From: Gaiellales bacterium | GTDB lineage: Bacteria; Actinomycetota; Thermoleophilia; Gaiellales; SKUG01 | Assembly: GCA_038212015.1 (NCBI GenBank) | Contig: JBBQUY010000006.1 | Location: 3,016-67,015 of the forward strand | Direction: 5' to 3' | Length of the DNA stretch: 64,000 nucleotides | In this document: piece by piece, positions 7,545 to 18,045 of the stretch | Layout of the letters: the number at the start of each line of letters is the position of its first letter | Numbering within the stretch: position 1 is the stretch's first letter | Position numbers and translations under genes: made by a program | Notes under the pieces: model-generated | Database searches by the model: none | Told to the model about the DNA's origin: nothing | Seen by the model: only the letters and a program-made list of their open reading frames with translations

Positions 7545-9329
7545 TCAGCTGCCTTCGACCGGGCGGCGCGCGACGCACAGCGCCTCGGCCAGGCGGATCG
7601 TGTCGTCGTGCGGCAGGCCGCGTGAGTGGGCGAGCGCGATACCGAGCACCTGGGCTGCGTACTCCCAGAGCGCGAGCGGACCGGAGCGACACAGCTGTTC
7701 CCAGCCAAACGGAATGATCAGCTTCGCGACCGTGGACTCGGCGTCCCCGGAGGCGCGGTCGATGCCGATCGACTGGCGCACGATGCGGCCCCAGAATGCG
7801 TGGGCGGTGGCGCGGTTGGCTTCGCGCACGGCTCCGGAGCCCTGCACGAGCGTGCCACTGCGCGCGACGATGCGTGCGAGTTCGTGGTCGGTGCGCAGCG
7901 AATCGTGCAGCGCCTCGAGCCAGGTGTCCGCCGAATCCTTCTCGTGGCGCTGGCGCAGCGTGCCCTGGCGCAGCTTCGCGGCGGCGGCCATGCGGCGCAG
8001 GCGCAGCGCGCCCGAGATGCTCGTGGTCGTGACGCGCTCCACGCGCAGCGGCTGCAGCAGTGGCGGCACGCTCGCGGCGGGCGAGCCCATCGCGGGCATT
8101 CGCCTGGAGCGAGTCGCGGCGCGGTCGAGCGCGTCGAGCGGAATGTGGTCGACGAGCTCGTATGCGTCTCGGCGCGAGATGCCGTGGGCGTTGCGCAGGT
8201 CCTTGATGCGCCCGGTGCGGCGCTTGCGGTTGGCGATCCATGCGGCGTCGGGCCACACGAGCATCGCCGCGAGCGCGCGGATCGAATCCGGCACCACCGA
8301 CGCATGCGGCTCGACCACGCCGGTGTGCTCGCGCTCGGCAGCTGCGATGTCGGCGACGTGGTCGACGAGGATCGTCGCCCACTCGGCGTCCTGGAACTCG
8401 CACAGCAGGTAGATGGCGTCCTGCAGCACGCTCAGGTGGTCGGGGTGCACGATCTCGGCGGCGCGCTCGATGAGCGCCTCGAATCCGAGCCGTGAGGCGT
8501 GGTCGATGTGAGCGCGGCGCTTGCGCGTGAACTGGTAGGCGGTCTTGACGCGGCGCACGCGGCCACCTTCGCGGCGACCCAGGCGGGTGCCGCGCCGGAA
8601 CGCCTCGGCGTACAGCTTGTCGTCGACGCCGAGCGCGCGAATGCCTGCCACGAAGTCGGCTTCGTCGAGACCGGTGATGCCGGTGCCGCAGATCGCGCCG
8701 AGCAGCAGGCCGGGCTGCGCCGCCGACGGCAGGTGGTACCAGCCGGCGACTTCGTGGCCGTCGAAGGCGTAATAGGCGAGCGCAGACGTTCGGGCGATCG
8801 CATCGATCTCGCGCTCGGTGAGCACGTGCTCGGGGGCGACGTCGCGCTCGACGCTCGTGAACGCGCGGCGGCACGAGGACACGACGGTGGTGACGTCGGA
8901 GTCGACGAAGCCAGCGTCGATCGCACGAACGAGCTCGAGGTGCTCGCCGGCGACCACGAGGTCGACCGCGCCCCAGGGAACGTCGCCCAGTGCGTCTTCG
9001 ATGTCGGCATCGGCGGCGACTTCGACGTACATGCCGTGCGGCATGCGCGAGTTGCCGGCAAGCGGCACGGCCTGCGCGACGATGCCGGCCTCGCGGCAGG
9101 CGAGCAGCAGCCAGTCCACGACGAGCAGCGTTCGATCCTCGGTGAGGCCGCACACGAGCGCGGACCACGGGCGGATCGCGGCGGCACCGCGCACGGGCAG
9201 GGCGGCGACAGCGGCGGGGAGCACCGTCTGATCCGGCGCCGAAGCCGCACGTTCGTGACCGGCGTCTGTCACCAACGTGCTGGGGGCGACGGCGGCATCG
9301 ACGGTGCGTGGGGGCAGGGTTCCGGTCAC
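7545..9329 (-). CDS. Indolepyruvate/2-oxoacid:ferredoxin oxidoreductase beta-subunit-like protein (divergent)
   Basis: The N-terminal segment ALVCGLTEDRTLLVVDWLLLACREAGIVAQAV resembles the POR-gamma/IorB nucleotide-fold start. A long C-terminal extension follows, as in IorB/DUF6537-type proteins. GTG start 9329 overlaps the upstream stop (GTGA). Confidence 0.5.
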   Translation of the reverse strand: MTGTLPPRTVDAAVAPSTLVTDAGHERAASAPDQTVLPAAVAALPVRGAAAIRPWSALVCGLTEDRTLLVVDWLLLACREAGIVAQAVPLAGNSRMPHGMYVEVAADADIEDALGDVPWGAVDLVVAGEHLELVRAIDAGFVDSDVTTVVSSCRRAFTSVERDVAPEHVLTEREIDAIARTSALAYYAFDGHEVAGWYHLPSAAQPGLLLGAICGTGITGLDEADFVAGIRALGVDDKLYAEAFRRGTRLGRREGGRVRRVKTAYQFTRKRRAHIDHASRLGFEALIERAAEIVHPDHLSVLQDAIYLLCEFQDAEWATILVDHVADIAAAEREHTGVVEPHASVVPDSIRALAAMLVWPDAAWIANRKRRTGRIKDLRNAHGISRRDAYELVDHIPLDALDRAATRSRRMPAMGSPAASVPPLLQPLRVERVTTTSISGALRLRRMAAAAKLRQGTLRQRHEKDSADTWLEALHDSLRTDHELARIVARSGTLVQGSGAVREANRATAHAFWGRIVRQSIGIDRASGDAESTVAKLIIPFGWEQLCRSGPLALWEYAAQVLGIALAHSRGLPHDDTIRLAEALCVARRPVEGS

Positions 9330-11140
9330 AGGTCCACTCCCGCGACGGCGCGCACGAGCTTGCGGCGCAGGTTCCAGGACAGGCGCTTGGCCCGGCCCGT
9401 GGTGTCGCGGCGACGCAGGTCCCACGTGGCGGGCGACAGCTCGCGGACGGGGTCGAGCGAGGCGTGCGCGGCGGGCACGTCCAGCGCGAGCACGGTGGGG
9501 CCGGCGACGAGTTCCTCGCCGAGCTGCACGAGCGCTGTTGCAGCCGTCGGCACGGCGGCGGTGGCGATGCGGTCGGTGCCGACCAGGTCGGGGTCCATGC
9601 CGAAGGTGGACCCGCGGCGCGGTGCGGCGACGCGCTGCACGTCGCCCACGACGATCACGTGCGAGGCGACGCGCATGGAGCGGCAGGCGGTGCCGACGGC
9701 GACGCCGATCGCGCGGGGCGAGCTGCCGTCGACGTACTCGATGGACGCGCCGGCGGCTCCTGCGGCTTCGGTGACGCCGCCGCCCTGGCCGGTGACGACG
9801 AACACGCCGTGACCGGTGCCGGGTGCGGCGCTCGCGGCGCCGTGGGCTGCGAAGACTGCAGCAGGCACGACGGTGAGCGGCACGCCGGTGTCGGTCTGGT
9901 ACGTCGGGTACTCGGCGTCGAGGCGACCGGGCACGCCGATCACGCCCTGCGCGAGCGTCAGGCCGGCGGCGACGACGGGCGAGACGGCGCGGTGCAGGAC
10001 CTCGCCGCGGCGCGGCACGCGGCTGCTGGCGACGGTGCGCGGAGCCGCGACTGCCCCGGCGAGCTCATCGAGTGCGGCGAGGCCAGGATCATCTTCGGAA
10101 AGGCGTGTGCGGGCCCACGACGCAACGAGCGACACGAGCGTCTCGCCACGCAGCGAGCCGGCATCGATCGAGTGGGTGGCCGAGACCGGGGCCGACAGGT
10201 CCGAGCGAAGCTGGTCGGCGATGCGGTCGGCGCGTGGCGCGATCACGCAGGCGTCGTCGACGGCGCCGAGCATTCGCCCGATCGCACCGTCGCGAGCCGG
10301 CACGATGCCGACCGCGCGGCTGGACACGATCGCGACATCGTCCAGGCGCGTTGCGCTACCGACGTCAACGAGGCGCGCTGCGACCTGCGCCAGCGCACGT
10401 TCGGCGGCAACACGGATCGGGCCGGCAACGACGAGCGCGCAGACTGCGCCGCCGTGGGCGCTGCCGAGCGTCGCGTCGATGAGCCCGGCCTGCTCGGCCG
10501 CAGCGGCAATCGAGACGTGGCCCGGGGTACGGATCTCGGCATCCGCATCGGCGGTGGCGACGGGCGAGGCGTCATGGCGGCGGCGAATCGTGCCACGCAT
10601 GCCGAGCGCTCGCTCGCGAATCACGATGAGGGCGGGGCGGCCGGCGGCGACGCTCGCGGCGTAGGCGGCGTCGATGGCGCGGACCAGGCCGATCGCGGTG
10701 GGCTCGGGATCGATGACGAGCGCGTCGTCGATGCGCAGCACGTCCTCGTCGAAGCTGAATCCGACCACGCCGCCGGCACACTGCACTCGTGCGAACTGCT
10801 CGAGGGCAGGGCGCAGGCCTCGTCGTCCGCCGAACACGACCGCGCCGCGCGGGGGAGCGCCGGTGATGCCGCCTGTGGGTGAAGTCACGAGCGGCTCCAG
10901 GGCCGAGCGGCTGCGCAGGCGTCGCAGCACGACGCCGCGGGGCGAGAGCACTCGTTCGCGCGCCTCGTCGATGGCGGCGTCGATCGGGGTGGGGCGATCG
11001 TGCCAGGAGCTGACGATGTATCCCACGCCGTTTTCGAGCAGCGCACGCACGACGACCAGTCCCAGGTCGCCGGTCAGCAGTTCACGGGCGCCGCCATGGG
11101 CACCGGTCGTCTGCTCCATATGCTCCTCAGTCGGGAGCAT
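9326..11140 (-). CDS. Indolepyruvate/2-oxoacid:ferredoxin oxidoreductase alpha-subunit-like protein (divergent, no Fe-S Cys motifs)
   Basis: The N-terminus ELLTGDLGLVVVRALLENGVGYIVSS resembles the LLSGNEA..RGALEAGV start of IorA/PorA. ...VFVVTGQGGG... sits where the TPP-domain MTGGQ motif would be. GGAGGA lies 6 nt before ATG 11140. An alternative ATG lies at 11119. Confidence 0.5.
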   Translation of the reverse strand: MLPTEEHMEQTTGAHGGARELLTGDLGLVVVRALLENGVGYIVSSWHDRPTPIDAAIDEARERVLSPRGVVLRRLRSRSALEPLVTSPTGGITGAPPRGAVVFGGRRGLRPALEQFARVQCAGGVVGFSFDEDVLRIDDALVIDPEPTAIGLVRAIDAAYAASVAAGRPALIVIRERALGMRGTIRRRHDASPVATADADAEIRTPGHVSIAAAAEQAGLIDATLGSAHGGAVCALVVAGPIRVAAERALAQVAARLVDVGSATRLDDVAIVSSRAVGIVPARDGAIGRMLGAVDDACVIAPRADRIADQLRSDLSAPVSATHSIDAGSLRGETLVSLVASWARTRLSEDDPGLAALDELAGAVAAPRTVASSRVPRRGEVLHRAVSPVVAAGLTLAQGVIGVPGRLDAEYPTYQTDTGVPLTVVPAAVFAAHGAASAAPGTGHGVFVVTGQGGGVTEAAGAAGASIEYVDGSSPRAIGVAVGTACRSMRVASHVIVVGDVQRVAAPRRGSTFGMDPDLVGTDRIATAAVPTAATALVQLGEELVAGPTVLALDVPAAHASLDPVRELSPATWDLRRRDTTGRAKRLSWNLRRKLVRAVAGVDL

Positions 11141-11189
11141 TCGATTCCTCCGTTCGCCACGCCGCTGTCCCGTCGTCAGTGCTCACCGG

Positions 11190-11322
11190 GTGGCCGTCGC
11201 CTGTGGGGCGTGGCCGTCGGTGCGCACCGCACTGACGTTGGGATCCTCACCGCTCTATCGCGGCTCGGCGGCACTCGCGTTGCAGATGCGGCCACCGAGT
11301 GGCCGTCGTACCGTGGCCGTCG
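11190..11322 (+). repeat. Four direct copies of the decamer GTGGCCGTCG in the iorA / transglutaminase-like intergenic region
   Basis: Copies at 11190-11199, 11210-11219, 11299-11308 and 11313-11322, all in the same orientation and all non-coding. Confidence 0.6.
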
Positions 11323-11417
11323 GCGCCGCAGCGTGGATTCTGGCACGTTGCTTCACGCGGGCGTGCAGGCGCGCTCGCGCGTGGCCCCGCTGTCGGCGCG
11401 CTGACGCAATTCGTGGT

Positions 11418-11445
11418 TTGCAGATCTGCAATTCCGTCGTACGGT
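11418..11445 (+). promoter_or_regulatory. Putative promoter with embedded perfect palindrome TGCAGATCTGCA
   Basis: TTGCAG (11418-11423), a 16-nt spacer, then TACGGT (11440-11445), about 95 nt upstream of ATG 11541. The 12-nt palindrome at 11419-11430 is flanked by GCAATTC direct repeats. This is a locally AT-richer patch. Confidence 0.35.
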
Positions 11446-11540
11446 GGCAGCAGGGAAACGAATGCGTGCCTCTGGGATCACGCTGGCGTGGACGCCAGCC
11501 TCGGGGTTCGTACGGGACATCACGGACGAAGGAATCGACG

Positions 11541-12380
11541 ATGCGAATGCGACGTCTAGGGGTTCTGGTCGTAGCAGCCATGGCGAGCATGACGCTCATT
11601 ACGCCAGCTGGTGCGAGCGCAGCCACCGAGTACGGCTCGACGAACAAGTGGCCCTGGTCGGGCTACTGGTTCCCGATGCTCGACAACGGCTACAACCTGT
11701 ATTCGGCCGGAGGCCCGCTGCAGAAGTACGACCAGCAGTTCGGCACCGGAGCACAGGCCTGGGAGCGGGCGAACCACTACACCAACGACGCCGCCAACAA
11801 GTGGTGGGGTCACTGCCACGCATGGGCAGCGGCGGCGATCCTCGCTCCGGAGCCCAAGGCGACCGGCAACTACACCATCAACGACACCAAGGGTCTGACG
11901 ACGGCGCTGTATTACGAGCCGACGTTCCAGTGGCTCAGCGGCGTCCGAGTGGATGACGTCAACGACAAGTCGTCTGCCGCGTACCAGGACATCGCTCCGG
12001 CGTGGATGGACTACCTGCTTCGCTACTACATCCGCTACCACAAGTATCCGTTCATCATGGACGTGAACGCGGATTCGCAGGTCTGGAACTACCCGGTGTT
12101 CGCCTACCACCGCGAGAGCACGCAGTACGCGGGTGGCATCGAGGACGTCAAGACCACGGTCTGGTTCTCCAGCCCGGACTGGAACGTGACCGGCACCAAG
12201 TACATCTCCAGGACGTACACGTACCGCCTGCAGTCCGGCACGCTCGGACAGTGGTTCGGCTCGAGCGTCCACGATCACCCGGACTTCGCATGGGTGCCGA
12301 CGGGCAAGCGCCCCGGCGCGGGAACCAACCCGCACGTCACCGAGGCGAACGTCGAGAAGATCACCGGACTCGACGTCTAG
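11541..12380 (+). CDS. Secreted transglutaminase-elicitor (GP42/TGase_elicitor)-like cysteine enzyme
   Basis: Signal peptide MRMRRLGVLVVAAMASMTLITPAGASA. Candidate nucleophile motif WWGHCHAWAAAAI (Cys92, nt 11814-11816). VWNYPVFAYHRES (nt 12081-12119) resembles Pep-13, VWNQPVRGFKVYE (from memory). Confidence 0.6.
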   Translation: MRMRRLGVLVVAAMASMTLITPAGASAATEYGSTNKWPWSGYWFPMLDNGYNLYSAGGPLQKYDQQFGTGAQAWERANHYTNDAANKWWGHCHAWAAAAILAPEPKATGNYTINDTKGLTTALYYEPTFQWLSGVRVDDVNDKSSAAYQDIAPAWMDYLLRYYIRYHKYPFIMDVNADSQVWNYPVFAYHRESTQYAGGIEDVKTTVWFSSPDWNVTGTKYISRTYTYRLQSGTLGQWFGSSVHDHPDFAWVPTGKRPGAGTNPHVTEANVEKITGLDV

Positions 12381-12476
12381 CACCGGTACGAAATGAGCGA
12401 TTCAGTTCGGGGCCGTCCTTCGGGGGCGGCCCCGACTGCGTGCTCGGCCTCAAGGCTGGCGCACGAACGTGCCGAT

Positions 12477-13139
12477 ATGCGCCGTATGCGCTCCTCCACG
12501 ATTCGCCTCATCTCGATCTTCGTCATCTTCGTCGCCGCGCTCGGTGGCGGGATCCTCGTGCTGCGCGGCTCCGACGACGGGTCGTCGAACGGCAACGGCT
12601 CCGGCGGAAAGAGCGCAGGAAGCGATTTCTGGCAGGTCGGCGACGAGTGGACCGTCCAGGTGGCACAGGATGGCGGTGCGATCGCGCCGGACGGCGGCAG
12701 CACGAGCGTCGCGAAGATCCCGTTCCGCTTCACGGTGATGGACTCACCCGCCACGTCGAGCGAGCCATGGATCGTGAAGGTCGAGCAGGATGGAGCGGAA
12801 GGCCCGTTCGCTGCGGGGTGGCGCCTGTACTACGTCGAGCGCGACGGTGGGATGGAGCTGTCGAAGGTCGCCATGGGCGGTGCCACGGACAAGCCGCTCG
12901 AGGCCGAGCTCGCGACGATCGTGCTCGGATCGCAGTTCCCGTACGAGGTGCGCTACGAAACCGCCCCCAAGGACAAGACGGTCACGGCGGCCGACCTGAT
13001 CGAGCGCTCGTCGCTGCCGCCGTCGTCGGCGGTTCCGGGATCCAACGGCACGGGTGGCCCGGCTGGTGCGCCGACGGCGCCGCCGATCGACGAGGCCGTC
13101 GCCCCGGGCAACACCGCGCCCGCCACGCCGAAGCGCTGA
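12477..13139 (+). CDS. Membrane-anchored hypothetical protein (Pro/Ala-rich C-terminal tail)
   Basis: I chose the internal ATG 12477 (MRRMRSSTIRLISIFVIFVAALGGGILVL = N-terminal TM). The extracytoplasmic domain has no motif I recognise. Confidence 0.5.
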   Translation: MRRMRSSTIRLISIFVIFVAALGGGILVLRGSDDGSSNGNGSGGKSAGSDFWQVGDEWTVQVAQDGGAIAPDGGSTSVAKIPFRFTVMDSPATSSEPWIVKVEQDGAEGPFAAGWRLYYVERDGGMELSKVAMGGATDKPLEAELATIVLGSQFPYEVRYETAPKDKTVTAADLIERSSLPPSSAVPGSNGTGGPAGAPTAPPIDEAVAPGNTAPATPKR

Positions 13140-13228
13140 CCCACTCACAGATCGTTCGTTTATCAAGCATGCGGTGTTGGCGAACCGACGTGCGGTGAAC
13201 TACGGTCGATCCCGAGGGCGGGCTCGGC

Positions 13229-14452
13229 ATGACTGTGACCATGCCCGCACTGCAGCCGCATGTTCGCGAGAAATGCCTGCTCGAGGTCGAATCGCTGCTC
13301 GGCAGCGACCGTCCCTTGCAGGACCGCCTGGAGGCCGTCGCCACCGAGCTCGGCACGCGTATGGGCGTGCAGCGCGTGGTCGTGTACGGACACGGCGATT
13401 CCCGAGACTCCGCCGTTCGCGTTCGAGTGCAGTGGACGGCACCCGAACGCCGGCCGCTCGGCGACTGGATCGGCGCGATACCACTCATCAGCGATCGGCC
13501 GGAAGACCGAGCCATCGTCACGTCGACACCCCAGGGCACCTACTGCCCCGATGACTGCCCTTCGTCGCTCGCCACCTGCGACCTGCAACACGCATGCTCG
13601 AGCATCATCCAACCCCTGCGACTGGGAAGTGTGCGCTACGGGACGCTGGCGGTCCATGCCGTCACCGGGACTGCGTGGAACGACCAGCAGGCATCGCTCG
13701 TCGAGAACGTGGCACGTCGGATCACGCTCGAGATCGCCGTGGCTCGCCAGAGGCGCGTGGAGGCGCACCTCGACGCGCAGCGGTCGGGCATCGCGGCAAC
13801 GGCGCTGCACCAGATCGCGACCCCGGTGACGATCATCGAGGGAGTCATCGATCAGCTCGGCCAAGCGGGCGAGGCACCGCCGGAACTGCTGCGCATCGCA
13901 AGCGTCGAGGTCGAGCACCTGCGCCGCCTCTGTGACGACATCGCGGTGATCGCTGGCGGATCACTCCCGGGGCTGACCGGGACCCGCGACCGATGCGACG
14001 TTGCGGCGACGGTGCAGGCGGCCGTGCGATCCGCCGAGCTTCGACATGCTGGCACCACGATCCGGCTCGAGGTCGAGGACCAGCTCCCCTGTGCGAACTG
14101 CGATGCCGTGGACCTCGCACGAACCCTGGATCGGGTCGTCGACAACGCGGTGCGCTACGCGGGACGCAGCTCGAAGGTCGATGTCGCGTGCTGGGCGGAC
14201 GACGGTCGTGTGTTCGTGCGCGTGCGCGATGACGGCGACGGCGTCACCGCCGCGCAGGCCGCCGTGCTCGGAGAGCCGTTCGCGCGGCTCGATCCGAACA
14301 TGCGGTCACAGCCCGGCGGATTCGGGCTGAGCCTGGCCGTGGGGATGCAGGCGATGCGTCGACACGGTGGCGACCTCCACATCGAGCCTCGGAGCGATTC
14401 GCCGGGCACGCAGGTCACGATCGTGCTGCCTGCGTCGACTCCGGCGTGGTGA
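13229..14452 (+). CDS. GAF-like sensor histidine kinase (orphan, cytoplasmic)
   Basis: DHp His in LHQIATPVTIIEG. HATPase_c boxes DRVVDNAVRYA (N), VRDDGDGV (G1) and GGFGLSLA (G2). The N-terminal ~170 aa is GAF-like. Confidence 0.8.
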   Translation: MTVTMPALQPHVREKCLLEVESLLGSDRPLQDRLEAVATELGTRMGVQRVVVYGHGDSRDSAVRVRVQWTAPERRPLGDWIGAIPLISDRPEDRAIVTSTPQGTYCPDDCPSSLATCDLQHACSSIIQPLRLGSVRYGTLAVHAVTGTAWNDQQASLVENVARRITLEIAVARQRRVEAHLDAQRSGIAATALHQIATPVTIIEGVIDQLGQAGEAPPELLRIASVEVEHLRRLCDDIAVIAGGSLPGLTGTRDRCDVAATVQAAVRSAELRHAGTTIRLEVEDQLPCANCDAVDLARTLDRVVDNAVRYAGRSSKVDVACWADDGRVFVRVRDDGDGVTAAQAAVLGEPFARLDPNMRSQPGGFGLSLAVGMQAMRRHGGDLHIEPRSDSPGTQVTIVLPASTPAW

Positions 14453-14541
14453 CGAACGTGTGCCAGCTGCGCTGACGCAGCCGCCTCGGGCCGCGCAATT
14501 ACGCGGTCCGCATATCGGGATTCATGACGCACCGAACGTAC

Positions 14542-14567
14542 AAACCCGCGAACGATTCGCGGGTTTT
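14542..14567. terminator. Intrinsic terminator-like hairpin (A-tract / 10-11 bp stem / T-tract)
   Basis: AAACCCGCGAA-CGA-TTCGCGGGTTTT sits 90 nt after the kinase stop and before the oxidase operon. Confidence 0.7.
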
Positions 14568-14608
14568 CACGATACGCGACGGGCGGATCGCTGCGAGCCT
14601 GCGCAGCC

Positions 14609-14803
14609 ATGAGCACAGATCCCTTTGCGCCACCAGACGATGCCACCCCGGAAGAGCTCGACGCTGGCGTCACCGAGCGTGTCTTCGACAACCTCGCCGC
14701 CTGGGGATTCATCGCAGTCGCCATAGCGGCCCTCTACCTGGTGTGGGCGACCATCGAGATCCTGACCCAGATTGCCGGCGACATGCCTGGAATTGGAGCC
14801 TGA
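14609..14803 (+). CDS. Small single-TM protein, candidate oxidase subunit IIa-like component
   Basis: 64 aa with one TM (WGFIAVAIAALYLVWATIEIL). Its stop TGA 14801-14803 lies 1 nt before the subunit II ATG. This is the position cbaD occupies in Thermus ba3 operons (from memory). Confidence 0.45.
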   Translation: MSTDPFAPPDDATPEELDAGVTERVFDNLAAWGFIAVAIAALYLVWATIEILTQIAGDMPGIGA

Positions 14804-14804
14804 G

Positions 14805-15377
14805 ATGTCCGAGACGACTCCGACAGCCACACCCCCCGTCCCGGATCCGTCCGAATCGGCGCTCGCACCGCTGCCGGGGCGATGGGCTCGACGAATGCCT
14901 CGCGACGAGTACGTGTTCATGTGGATCGCGATCCTGCTGACCGTCGTGATGTCGGCGTTCCTGGTCGGTTGGATCTTCGTGAGCGACCACAACGTACCGA
15001 CCCGCTCGAAGGCAACGACGCCGACCGAGTTCGGAGAGCAGGTCTCCTCGTTCATGGCCGCAAACGACGCCGAGAACGGCGTGGTCAAGGTCCCGCCCGG
15101 CAAGGACGCCTACGTGATGGCGGAGCGCTACCGCTTCTACCCGGCGCTCGTGCTCAAGGTGAACGAGCCGTACACCATTTGGGTTTCATCGCGCGACGTG
15201 CTGCACGGCTTCTCGCTCGTCGGTTTCAACCGGAGCCTGAACTTCACGGTCGCACCGGGACACGCCTACGGCCTGCGGTTCACGCCGGACAAGACCGGCA
15301 CCTACAAGATCGTCTGCAACGAGTACTGCGGACAAGCGCACCACGCCATGACCGGCACGATCACCGTCGAGGAGTAG
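14805..15377 (+). CDS. Heme-copper oxidase subunit II, B-family (ba3-like), CuA domain
   Basis: Single N-terminal TM (VFMWIAILLTVVMSAFLVGWIF). CuA ligand motif HGF...CNEYCGQAHHAM. GGAG lies upstream of ATG 14805. Confidence 0.85.
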   Translation: MSETTPTATPPVPDPSESALAPLPGRWARRMPRDEYVFMWIAILLTVVMSAFLVGWIFVSDHNVPTRSKATTPTEFGEQVSSFMAANDAENGVVKVPPGKDAYVMAERYRFYPALVLKVNEPYTIWVSSRDVLHGFSLVGFNRSLNFTVAPGHAYGLRFTPDKTGTYKIVCNEYCGQAHHAMTGTITVEE

Positions 15378-15384
15378 TAGGACC

Positions 15385-17139
15385 ATGGCAACCGCCGAGA
15401 TCACCGCCAGCGCGCTTCCGCTCACCCGCAGCGAGCGCTCCGTCATCTGTCCCGTCACGGGCCTGCGCATCTACGCAGGTGCGCGCGCCCTCACGCTCGC
15501 CAACGCCGTCGCCGCGGTACTTGCACTCGCGGCAGGCGGCACGTTCGCGCTGCTCGTGGGACTGACGCGCACGCCATCGGTGAGCATGCTCAAGCCCGAG
15601 GCGTACTACCAGTCGCTCACGGGGCACGGCGTCGCGGCGCTGATTCTCTGGCCCATCTTCTTCGAGGTCGCCGCGATGGTGTTCGCCTCGTCGATTCTGC
15701 TCAACACGCGTGTGTGGAGCATGAAGCTGGGCTGGACGTCATTCGCCGCAATGATCGCGGGCACGGCGATGCTGCTCGTGTCGGTGATCAGCGGAAAGGC
15801 GAACGTGACGTTCACCGCATATCCCCCGCTCATCGCCAACCCGATGTTCTACCTCGGCTACATCGTGTTCGCCGTGGGCGTGCTGCTGGCGGTCGTCAAC
15901 TTCTGCATGACGATCCTGCTCGCGCGCCAGGAGCGCATGAAGAACAAGTCCCTGCCGCTGCTCACCTATGGCGTGGCGGTGGCCGCGCTGCTCGCGCTCA
16001 TGGGCATCGTCGCCGGACTCGTCGCGCTCGTGCCCGCCTGGCTCTACTCGATGGGCCTGATCGGCTCGGTCGAGCCGATCGTCTACCGCGCGTGGTTCTG
16101 GGGTCTCGGCCATACGCTGCAGTACGTCAACGTGGTGGCGATGGTGGTGGCGTGGTACGGCATCATCGCGCTCACCCTGCGCGCCGGACCGGTCAACCAG
16201 AAGTTCAGCCGGCTGGCGTTCATCCTGTACCTCGTGTTCGCGGTGCCGGTGCTCGGCCATCACTTCATCGTCGATCCGGGCCTGTCGACGAGCGTCAAGG
16301 TGTTCGGGGCCTCGTTCATGGGCTTCGCGCTCGGCATCCCGAGCCTCATGCACGGCCTCGCCGTGATGGGCGCCGTCGAATCTCGCATGCGACGCGGTGG
16401 CGGCGTGACGGGCCTGTTCGGCTGGATCCGCGCGCTCGACTGGAAGCATCCCGGCATCGCCGCACTCGGCGTGTCGCTCGTGCTGTTCGCGATCGGTGGC
16501 TGGTCCGGATCGGCACAGACCACGCTGCAGCTCAACATGCTGACCCACAACACGATGTGGGTGCCGGCGCACCTGCACGCAGTTGTCGTCGGCGGCATGA
16601 CGCTCGGCTTCATGGGCTTCGCGTACTACCTGGTGCCGATCCTCGCCGGTCGTCGCCTGTTCTCGCGGCGCCTCGCGACGATCCAGGTGTACCTGTACGG
16701 CGGTGGCCTGCTCTTCATGATCGCGATGCAGTCCTGGGCCGGCATCATCGGCGTGCCGCGACGTACCGCGTCGATCGAGTACGGCGGACAGGCCCCGACG
16801 AGCTGGGAGCTCCCGATGAACCTGATGGGCGTCGGCGTGACGCTCGCCGCGCTCGGCGGCCTGATCTTCATCCTCCAGATGGTGCTGACCCTGATCGTCG
16901 GCAAGCCGACGTCGGATCCCGCCGAACTCGTTCCGAGCGCGAGCAAGATCCCGCTGGCGGACCCGCCCACGCTCGCAGCCGCGACGGCGAACGTCGGTGG
17001 CCCGAACGACGGCGGCACGCCCGACCGGCGCCTCGAGACGCCCGGCGCGTTCAGCGTGATGACCATCTACGTGGCCCTGTTCCTGGTGACCTGGCTCGCG
17101 TACTTCGCATACCTGACCCTGCACTGGGCCGTGAACTGA
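15385..17139 (+). CDS. Heme-copper oxidase subunit I, B-family (ba3-like)
   Basis: Polytopic, 584 aa. Contains GHTLQY (CuB His plus cross-link Tyr spacing), GHHF (CuB His pair) and PAHLHAVV (heme ligands). Confidence 0.85.
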   Translation: MATAEITASALPLTRSERSVICPVTGLRIYAGARALTLANAVAAVLALAAGGTFALLVGLTRTPSVSMLKPEAYYQSLTGHGVAALILWPIFFEVAAMVFASSILLNTRVWSMKLGWTSFAAMIAGTAMLLVSVISGKANVTFTAYPPLIANPMFYLGYIVFAVGVLLAVVNFCMTILLARQERMKNKSLPLLTYGVAVAALLALMGIVAGLVALVPAWLYSMGLIGSVEPIVYRAWFWGLGHTLQYVNVVAMVVAWYGIIALTLRAGPVNQKFSRLAFILYLVFAVPVLGHHFIVDPGLSTSVKVFGASFMGFALGIPSLMHGLAVMGAVESRMRRGGGVTGLFGWIRALDWKHPGIAALGVSLVLFAIGGWSGSAQTTLQLNMLTHNTMWVPAHLHAVVVGGMTLGFMGFAYYLVPILAGRRLFSRRLATIQVYLYGGGLLFMIAMQSWAGIIGVPRRTASIEYGGQAPTSWELPMNLMGVGVTLAALGGLIFILQMVLTLIVGKPTSDPAELVPSASKIPLADPPTLAAATANVGGPNDGGTPDRRLETPGAFSVMTIYVALFLVTWLAYFAYLTLHWAVN

Positions 17140-17142
17140 CAC

Positions 17143-18045
17143 ATGCACGCGACCGGCATCCTCGTCGCTCATGTCGATGGCTCCGGCACGGAGACGCTCG
17201 ACGAGCTGCTGACCTCATGGGAGCGCGCTCCGTCCCTGCTGCTGCTGCTCGGGCTGCTCACCGTCGCCTACGTGCGCGCACTGCGCTCCACCGGACTGGG
17301 TCGTCGCCAGCGCGGCGTTCGACTCGCCGCCTGGCTGGGCTCGATGGTCGCGTTCCTGCTCGCGCTCGGATCACCCGTAGATGCCCTGGGCGCCCATCTG
17401 GTGTCGGGTCACATGCTCCAGCACATGCTGCTCGGTGATGCCGGACCCGCATTGGCGGCGGCAGCATTGACCGGCGGCGTCGGCGCGTCGATGGCGCGAA
17501 CCTTCGCGATCGGTCCATTCCGGACCGTGGCGCGAATCGCGCGGAAGACGCCGGTCGTCGTCGTGGTCTGTGCGTGGGGCGTGACGTGGGGCATGTGGCA
17601 CACGACGTGGGCCTACGAGGCGGCGCTGCGGTCAGCCCCGATTCACATGTTCGAGCACGTGTCGCTGCTGATCGTCGGCATCTGGTTGTGGACCGTGATC
17701 GTCGATCCGATGGGGTCACGCTCGGAGCAGTCGGCAACGCGCATCGGGGTGTCGGTCGCGGCGCTCTTCTTCGGTGCGATCCTCACCAACTCCCTGACAT
17801 ACGTGGACGAGCCGACCTATCCGGCGCTTGTCGGGAACGCGGAGCGGCTGGTGGGATGGACGAGCACGGCGGACCAGCAGCTGGCGGGACTCGTCATGCT
17901 CGGGATGCAGGCGTTCACGATCGGCGTCGCGCTCTGGTACCTGATCCGCCGGCACCTCGCGGCCGGCGCCGACGCTGCCCGCTCCGGCGACCTGCTCGCG
18001 GAGCCGGGGCGCGCTCCGGCTGCGTCGCACCCGCTCACCTGGTAG
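17143..18045 (+). CDS. ctaG: Cytochrome c oxidase assembly protein (Caa3_CtaG family)
   Basis: Multi-TM protein with SGHMLQHMLLGD and MFEHVSLLIVG motifs. It lies immediately after subunit I. Confidence 0.7.
   Translation: MHATGILVAHVDGSGTETLDELLTSWERAPSLLLLLGLLTVAYVRALRSTGLGRRQRGVRLAAWLGSMVAFLLALGSPVDALGAHLVSGHMLQHMLLGDAGPALAAAALTGGVGASMARTFAIGPFRTVARIARKTPVVVVVCAWGVTWGMWHTTWAYEAALRSAPIHMFEHVSLLIVGIWLWTVIVDPMGSRSEQSATRIGVSVAALFFGAILTNSLTYVDEPTYPALVGNAERLVGWTSTADQQLAGLVMLGMQAFTIGVALWYLIRRHLAAGADAARSGDLLAEPGRAPAASHPLTW

Follow-up and report, generated by a model that had tools for sequence, protein, structure and literature searches.

The enzyme gene and its relation to GP42

We analyzed a 64,000-nucleotide (nt) stretch of a Gaiellales genome (contig JBBQUY010000006.1, positions 3,016 to 67,015), here called the window, in which a gene for a 279-residue cysteine enzyme is followed by a gene for a membrane-anchored protein; we refer to the two products as the enzyme and its partner (Table 1). 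The enzyme is related to GP42 of Phytophthora sojae, a protein known for little else than containing Pep-13, a classic elicitor of plant immune responses. The original prediction, drawn from the DNA sequence, had described a secreted homologue of this GP42/TGase_elicitor family, and the description holds. The enzyme matches Pfam family PF16683 (TGase_elicitor) with 60.9 bits (E = 1.2e-16) against a gathering cutoff of 25, a single-sequence phmmer comparison to the GP42 structure 3TW5 gives E = 1.3e-11, and a profile made from 26 family sequences finds 3TW5 with E = 9.8e-38; given these three values, the match is not due to chance. An AlphaFold model of the enzyme, built on the family alignment, has a mean predicted local distance difference test score (pLDDT) of 88.8. 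A Foldseek comparison of this model to the Protein Data Bank (PDB), which had been proposed together with the Pfam search, returns 3TW5 as the only significant match (3tw5_A, E = 1.4e-12, probability 1.00, template modeling (TM) score 0.67/0.56, with 0.67 normalized to the query), and the runner-up has an E value of 0.21. The open reading frame (ORF) and the positions of its active-site and Pep-13-like motifs had been given exactly. At its N terminus, the protein carries the layout of a signal peptide, in which the positively charged MRMRR is followed first by a hydrophobic core and then by an A-x-A motif for cleavage (AGASA/ATE), and this region is helical in the model at residues 2-19. The enzyme is thus probably exported as a Sec-type secreted protein.

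We compared the active site of the enzyme to that of GP42. A 2023 classification of papain-like enzymes places GP42 in the papain-like cysteine peptidase superfamily and describes its unusual CH motif, in which the histidine follows the cysteine and contacts either an asparagine in strand β2 or an aspartate on a non-core helix (PMC10318531). GP42 is a Ca2+-dependent transglutaminase (PMC9879208). The candidate nucleophile of the window enzyme, Cys-92 (nt 11814-11816), is the sole cysteine in its 279 residues and is directly followed by His-93. Its WWGHCHAW segment aligns with WFGISHAW in 3TW5, the deposited chain having a serine at the cysteine position. This chain is reportedly the C290S mutant of Reiss et al. 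2011. The cysteine singled out in the original prediction hence falls on the nucleophile position of GP42, with the histidine next to it as in the CH motif.

Cys-92, Asp-150, Asn-183 and Pro-153 are invariant across our family alignment (A1). Asp-150 aligns with the aspartate of GP42 YRDLNPAY and is positioned just ahead of model helix 153-166, in agreement with the description of GP42 as having an aspartate carried by a helix outside the core (PMC10318531). Asn-183 corresponds to the asparagine of GP42 VWNQPV. Both residues are candidates for the third catalytic position. As Cys-92, Asp-150 and Asn-183 are invariant and His-93 is present, we predict that the enzyme is catalytically competent. 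In part of the family, the histidine following the cysteine is replaced by Asn, Gln or Asp (GHCN, GLCN, HCQ and HCD), and some of these variants also have no histidine ahead of the cysteine. Pro-247, Asp-248 and Trp-251 of the HDHPDFAW motif are again invariant and aligned with GP42. Together, the window enzyme shares with GP42 the fold, the Cys-His motif, a secreted state as judged from the N terminus, a PWSGxWWP element, the aspartate in Y-x-D-x-x-P-A, VWNxPV at the position of Pep-13, and DHPDF-x-W. It differs from GP42 by a structure-based sequence identity of only ~19% and by its compact size, as the mature protein of ~250 residues is devoid of the GP42 insertions (344-367 residues in 3TW5).

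A partner protein adjacent or fused to the enzyme

The partner had been predicted as a transmembrane-anchored protein with a Pro/Ala-rich tail, and we confirmed this layout and found the protein conserved beside the enzyme gene. As its homologues mostly begin at Met-4, the second of the two start codons listed in Table 1 is the more likely one. A hydrophobic helix (residues 9-29, modeled as a helix at residues 7-30) is followed by a Gly/Ser linker, a globular part and the tail. Positively charged residues precede the helix, and we therefore predict that the N terminus is located inside, with the globular domain and the tail facing outward. The globular domain has a β-rich core, with block-mean pLDDT values mostly between 85 and 94 for residues 81-170 and between 64 and 72 for residues 61-80. 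In the tail, the block means range from 41 to 63 and fall below 50 for residues 185-202. The LPP and AP repeats of the tail are conserved, and in close relatives it ends with Lys-Arg. Gln-104 and Gln-153 are invariant among the partner homologues.

The window partner matches no family in Pfam or NCBIfam, and a Foldseek comparison of its model to the PDB revealed no fold match (best E = 0.25). The partners from other phyla likewise match no family, and none of the 46 partner homologues contains a Pfam domain. Weak, sub-threshold matches were obtained with the other-phyla partners to LolA_like (E = 0.0026), DUF3108 (E = 4e-4) and MucB_RseB (E = 0.046) and, in the PDB, to 3bk5 (E = 0.07) and 3buu (E = 0.6), all below the curated cutoffs. 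These matches are mutually consistent, and the proteins concerned are β-rich envelope proteins like the partner. They were, however, found for the partners from other phyla only, and the window partner itself has no match in Pfam, NCBIfam or PDB folds. We regard a LolA-like fold of the partner only as a lead.

We compared the 80 best-matching loci of the enzyme family and examined the GP42-type genes of two bacteria (L081 and L082/L083) separately. In the window, the partner gene starts 97-106 nt downstream of the enzyme gene. It is located directly downstream in L001, L002, L003, L005 and L006 and beside an enzyme gene in L007, and thus adjoins the enzyme gene in all six Thermoleophilia/Gaiellales loci with enough flanking sequence (the contig of L004 ends 71 nt past the enzyme gene). 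Using partner profiles, we found that 65 of 76 enzyme-bearing loci have a partner-family ORF next to the enzyme gene on the same strand or fused to it; of the 11 loci with no detected partner, three are cut by contig ends. The gap between the genes frequently measures 0 or -3 nt, and in many cases the stop codon of one gene overlaps the start codon of the next. In Planctomycetota and Riflebacteria the partner gene lies upstream of the enzyme gene, while three Bacillota-like loci have it downstream. The partner diverges faster than the enzyme, with 65% versus 94% sequence identity in L001.

Between Planctomycetota and Riflebacteria, the partners are clear homologues (hhalign probability 99.7%). 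The Thermoleophilia partner profile matches the Planctomycetota, Riflebacteria and Bacillota partners with hhalign probabilities of 94.6, 91.8 and 90.2%, respectively, and a second profile-profile comparison to the other-phyla partners gives 84.2% (E = 7e-6). The aligned region begins past the membrane helix with a W-x-V-G-D-x-W-t-V motif, of which W-x-V-G-D-x-W is common to the Thermoleophilia, Planctomycetota and Riflebacteria partners. The two proteins also occur as single polypeptides. Nine database proteins and five locus ORFs represent fusions in which the partner precedes the enzyme, and in three proteins the enzyme comes first. In two fusion proteins, P0222 and P0254, the enzyme part is close to the window type (WWGHCHAW in P0222, WWGHCQAW in P0254, VWNYPVYA in both) and is connected to a partner domain by a linker, rich in Pro/Ala in P0222 and in Ser/Ala in P0254. 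This partner domain starts with GWRLGTEWTVKV (P0222) or GWRLGTRWTVRA (P0254) and ends with GAPWWVSY. The C-terminal domain of P0222 matches the Thermoleophilia partner profile. These fusions thus have a partner domain in which the Thermoleophilia partner motif occurs together with the C-terminal motif known from Planctomycetota partners. The conserved adjacency, the translational coupling seen elsewhere and the fusions in both orders together suggest that enzyme and partner act as a complex, and indicate a two-component module that would be located outside the cytoplasmic membrane.

This coupling sets the window enzyme apart from GP42. No partner is found next to the GP42-type gene in Pendulispora (L081) or Bacteriovoracaceae (L082/L083), a sample of two organisms only, and partner profiles gave no hit below E = 0.1 among 94 GP42-type proteins, a set that does not include the full GP42 precursor with its pro-region. 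Coupling to a partner thus seems to characterize the branch to which the window enzyme belongs, although the negative sample is small. The closest counterparts are partner-coupled PF16683 proteins from Planctomycetota, Riflebacteria and Bacillota, uncharacterized proteins from metagenome-assembled genomes (MAGs) that combine the same enzyme core with a partner of the same superfamily, adjacent or fused. In Planctomycetota and Riflebacteria, the gene order differs, with the partner gene first and usually a stop/start overlap, whereas the enzyme gene comes first in the window. Their partners are longer (~270 residues), have a cleavable signal peptide and end with a C-terminal Q-x-W-x-x-G-x-P-W motif.

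Several loci have additional components. A Thermoleophilia MAG (L007, 55-3240) contains three tandem enzyme copies, the first of them cut by the contig end, with the partner gene located between the first and the second copy. In most Planctomycetota loci (L010-L070; for example L012, 2930-7158), the partner gene is followed by an enzyme gene with a C-terminal DUF4384 domain and then by a caspase-family Peptidase_C14 gene, also with DUF4384; these additions are not part of the window pair. In Riflebacteria/Ozemobacteraceae, a small ORF whose N terminus resembles that of a prepilin (GFTMVE, MTFVEI) comes directly after the enzyme gene. T2SSK and/or HHH_3 domains are fused to some members of the family (P0116, P0118, P0119). 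These observations hint at a link to pseudopilin machinery.

In the window itself, the spacer between the two genes contains a GC-rich hairpin. The fold of the spacer has a z score of -3.65, within a range of -3.6 to -5.2 across the Thermoleophilia loci, and hairpins of similar strength are found in the spacers of L001 (4823-4955), L002 (2318-2402), L003 (4850-4947) and L006 (4868-5010). The hairpin is thus conserved by position, not by sequence. It could represent a terminator or attenuator of the high-GC type, or else stabilize the RNA and so adjust how much enzyme is made relative to partner. A scan of 11100-14800 for promoter and terminator consensus sequences gave none, which is uninformative at 69% G+C. 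The kinase gene that follows the pair, noted in the original prediction, is a real gene. No kinase gene accompanies the pair in L001-L007, and we therefore rejected the kinase as a part of the unit; no response-regulator domain is found among the annotated genes within ~10 kb of the kinase gene. Farther downstream (14772-18045) are the cytochrome oxidase genes coxII (COX2-like), coxI (COX1) and ctaG (Caa3_CtaG). Upstream, on the minus strand (7545-11140), two long ORFs of 626 and 604 residues overlap by ~100 nt; one contains DUF6537, the other has no Pfam match, and both are syntenic in L001-L004.

Table 1. Coordinates of the enzyme-partner pair, its sequence features and accompanying genes (window positions unless a locus is named)
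Feature	Position	Strand	Remarks
Enzyme gene	11541-12380	+	predicted secreted GP42-family (PF16683) cysteine enzyme, 279 residues
Predicted signal peptide	11541-11621	+	MRMRRLGVLVVAAMASMTLITPAGASA, then ATE; read directly from sequence
Active-site helix motif	11802-11840	+	WWGHCHAWAAAAI, residues 88-100; aligns with GP42 WFGISHAW
YQDIAPAW motif	11982-12005	+	Asp-150, candidate third catalytic residue; aligns with GP42 YRDLNPAY
Pep-13-homologous segment	12081-12119	+	VWNYPVFAYHRES, residues 181-193, with Asn-183; aligns with Pep-13 in 3TW5
HDHPDFAW motif	12270-12293	+	common to GP42 (DDHPDFLW)
Spacer hairpin, GC-rich	12407-12435	+	12-bp stem, 5-nt loop, no U-tract
Partner gene	12477-13139	+	membrane-anchored, 220 residues; more likely start 12486, 217 residues
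Partner transmembrane signal-anchor	12501-12563	+	IRLISIFVIFVAALGGGILVL; read from sequence
Partner globular domain	12627-13010	+	FWQVGDEWTVQV, QDGAEGPFAAGW, PLEAELATIVLGSQFPYEV; invariant columns in alignment A2
Partner Pro/Ala-rich tail	13014-13136	+	predicted disordered; sequence and low pLDDT
GAF-HisKA-HATPase kinase gene	13229-14452		domain search
Prepilin-like ORF after enzyme, L029	1757-2230		
Prepilin-like ORF after enzyme, L038	5184-5762		
Prepilin-like ORF after enzyme, L063	5103-5591		

Possible functions of the enzyme-partner pair

We propose, with a probability of roughly 55%, that the pair represents a secreted GP42-family acyl-transfer enzyme that is tethered and/or regulated by its partner, forming a two-gene module outside the cytoplasmic membrane. 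This proposal starts from the observed family membership, the fold, the conservation of the candidate catalytic residues, the co-conservation of the partner and the fusions; secretion and topology, the type of reaction and the role of the partner are what we infer. The enzyme would be exported and the partner inserted with its N terminus in and its globular domain out, so that both would face the same compartment. Catalysis would depend on Cys-92, with an acyl-enzyme thioester as the intermediate. If the enzyme acts like GP42, the most likely reaction would be a transamidation, such as the Gln-Lys cross-linking of envelope or wall proteins. The partner would bind the secreted enzyme, localize or tether it at the cell surface and possibly regulate it.

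The transglutaminase of Streptomyces mobaraensis provides a precedent for control of activity by an additional polypeptide segment, in this case a pro-peptide. Like the window enzyme, it is a Cys-dependent actinobacterial enzyme with a papain-like fold, and it is secreted (PMC10318531). It belongs, however, to an unrelated family with another arrangement of the catalytic triad, and its regulator is an N-terminal pro-peptide in the same chain. Searches of Pfam and of the PDB by Foldseek gave no sequence or fold match of the window enzyme to this transglutaminase.

Several points weigh against a tethered acyl-transfer enzyme. Transglutaminases and hydrolases are indistinguishable by sequence, and the GHCN and GLCN variants suggest that the catalytic arrangement or chemistry may differ between branches of the family. 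The partner model has a moderate overall pLDDT of 72 and no structural relatives. The homology of the Thermoleophilia partner to the partners from other phyla is suggestive rather than conclusive, with ~55-80 aligned residues and probabilities of 84-95%. The spacer hairpin could uncouple transcription of the two genes. Finally, the window sequence is found only in DNA metagenomes, which come from soil and groundwater.

The alternative that survives best, although we consider it unlikely, is that the enzyme is a hydrolase, a protease or amidase that would have peptidoglycan or protein as its target, with the partner serving as an inhibitor or chaperone that resembles a pro-domain but is a separate chain. 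The partner is N-terminal to the enzyme in most fusions, as pro-regions are, but fusions with the partner C-terminal to the enzyme occur too. A pro-domain-like role would agree with the faster evolution of the partner, and a peptidase of the caspase family is encoded in the Planctomycetota operon as well; what weak indications there are of the partner's fold, however, point to LolA-like proteins and not to known protease pro-domains. GP42 itself is classed among the papain-like cysteine peptidases (PMC10318531), yet this only characterized relative of the enzyme acts as a Ca2+-dependent transglutaminase (PMC9879208).

It is improbable that the partner is instead a substrate or acceptor, which would be cross-linked to the wall by its Pro/Ala-rich tail or by its conserved Gln residues. 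The invariant Gln-104 and Gln-153, the disordered tail ending with Lys-Arg in close relatives and the predicted location in the same compartment as the enzyme would be compatible with such a role. The tail and the membrane anchor are, however, lineage-specific, as Planctomycetota and Riflebacteria partners have cleavable signal peptides and no tail, and covalent enzyme-partner fusions favor a subunit over a substrate that is turned over.

We find it very hard to view the pair as a secreted antibacterial toxin with its immunity protein, even though a secreted papain-like enzyme followed by a small, fast-evolving envelope protein resembles the layout of amidase effector-immunity pairs. The flanking genes are syntenic in L001-L004, and we found no secretion-system or mobility genes among the annotated genes around the pair, with PADLOC and toxin libraries not included in the search. 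In addition, an immunity protein would hardly be expected to share one chain with its toxin, as the partner does with the enzyme in the fusions.

Family distribution and the Pep-13-like segment

We analyzed how the enzyme family is distributed, as the original prediction had anticipated an unusual occurrence of a GP42-type gene in this genome. In the literature, GP42 homologues are restricted to oomycetes and some marine Vibrio (PMC4915311), a view that the original prediction had reproduced correctly. An exhaustive profile search of 1.84 billion cluster representatives (clusters at 50% identity) matched 3,843 clusters with a limit of E <= 0.001, and 2,949 clusters with the stricter limit of E <= 1e-10; at least 502 relatives are encoded in GTDB species representatives, with one genome per prokaryotic species. 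The family spans Planctomycetota, Riflebacteria, Thermoleophilia, Bacillota, Chloroflexia and others, and every family match already carries a precomputed PF16683 label. With ~3,800 clusters and several hundred species-representative copies in many phyla, the supposed unusual distribution is not borne out, and the oomycete/Vibrio-only view of the GP42 family is out of date. Among the best 80 loci, seven belong to Thermoleophilia/Gaiellales, including L001 with the enzyme 94% identical to that of the window, and most others to Planctomycetota and Riflebacteria/Ozemobacteraceae; the remainder come from Chloroflexia, Spirochaetia, Armatimonadia, Bacillota, Acidobacteriota and a few archaeal MAGs. 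The seven Thermoleophilia/Gaiellales loci are the only ones from Actinomycetota in this set. The family is thus not common across Actinomycetota, yet the window copy is no isolated oddity. Three of the family members are found on contigs binned as archaeal (L035, L051 and L075; Methanospirareceae, Micrarchaeia and Thermoplasmata), where the binning is possibly erroneous; no partner ORF was detected beside these three enzyme genes.

A search with the GP42 core matched proteins from oomycetes, chytrids (Catenaria, Quaeritorhiza, Paraphysoderma), Pendulispora (Myxococcota), a deltaproteobacterial MAG and Bacteriovoracaceae, with the Pendulispora proteins being 43-46% identical to the GP42 core. 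No Vibrio protein is found among the closest GP42 relatives listed by this search (P0310-P0403), and the published account of GP42 acquisition from Vibrio may need re-examination. From the enzyme cores of 41 sequences, we calculated a neighbor-joining tree based on 240 columns, with 100 bootstraps. The GP42-type proteins from oomycetes, chytrids, Myxococcota and Bacteriovoracaceae form a clade with 89% bootstrap support. The window enzyme is located outside this clade, in a Thermoleophilia clade with 100% support amid other bacterial lineages. Nothing therefore points to an exchange with oomycetes, and the horizontal gene transfer that the original prediction had proposed to look for finds no support in the phylogeny.

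The sequence of Pep-13, correctly quoted in the original prediction, is VWNQPVRGFKVYE (PMC9879208). In our alignments to 3TW5, VWNYPV of the enzyme falls on VWNQPV, the first six residues of Pep-13, and the segment is located at the start of model strand 184-196. An ungapped comparison of VWNYPVFAYHRES to VWNQPVRGFKVYE yields 5 of 13 identical residues (V, W, N, P and V), all among the first six, whereas the seven C-terminal residues are not conserved (RGFKVYE against FAYHRES). Asn-183 is invariant, and Val-181, Trp-182 and Pro-185 are at least 90% conserved in alignment A1. Of 120 close and distant matches, 110 contain the motif [VIL]WNxP, as do 118 of the 143 cluster representatives and 76 of the 94 GP42-type proteins. 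As VWNxP is a core motif of the entire family, the match to Pep-13 is inherited, and this segment is, as judged from the alignments, a conserved active-site strand that reached the window enzyme by common descent. The likeness to Pep-13 noted in the original prediction hence stands with respect to position, but it is not special to this protein, and the segment does not support a role in plant immunity or an exchange with oomycetes.

Two of these five shared positions are Trp-2 and Pro-5 of Pep-13, which Brunner et al. in 2002 reportedly found to be critical for elicitor activity and which are both retained in the enzyme. Despite this, the soil habitat of the host organism and a literature that still confines the family to oomycetes and Vibrio (PMC4915311), we see next to no chance that the enzyme is an unusual, possibly horizontally acquired oomycete-type elicitor transglutaminase with an epitope meaningful for plant immunity, given the large family across many phyla, the position of the enzyme outside the GP42-type clade and the restriction of all Pep-13 identities to a motif that most family members have.

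Our findings together indicate that the window gene is a genuine and unremarkable member of a known Pfam family, which is far larger than the literature states. The GP42 fold, with its unusual Cys-His active site, is that of a large bacterial family, and in the 80 closest loci the majority of copies (65 of 76) are accompanied by a dedicated partner with no database description. The added value of our analysis is this conserved, uncharacterized partner and the two-gene module that it forms with the enzyme; for the window alone, the result is modest. We tentatively consider a broader view, which may well prove wrong, that enzyme and partner represent an ancient and widespread bacterial two-component enzyme system acting beyond the cytoplasmic membrane, in which the partner would be an obligatory subunit and constitute a new, possibly LolA-like domain family, and GP42 a partner-less offshoot. 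If so, the system would comprise thousands of clusters in Planctomycetota, Riflebacteria, Thermoleophilia, Bacillota and other phyla. The nearest bacterial relatives of GP42 would be found in Myxococcota and Bdellovibrionota rather than in Vibrio, chytrid fungi would carry a GP42-type gene as well, and the published history of gene acquisition by oomycetes would have to be revised. The presence of VWNxPV-type sequences in soil bacteria offers a baseline for judging the specificity of Pep-13 recognition by plants, and the enzyme-partner pair provides a concrete handle on the role of this family in bacterial envelopes.

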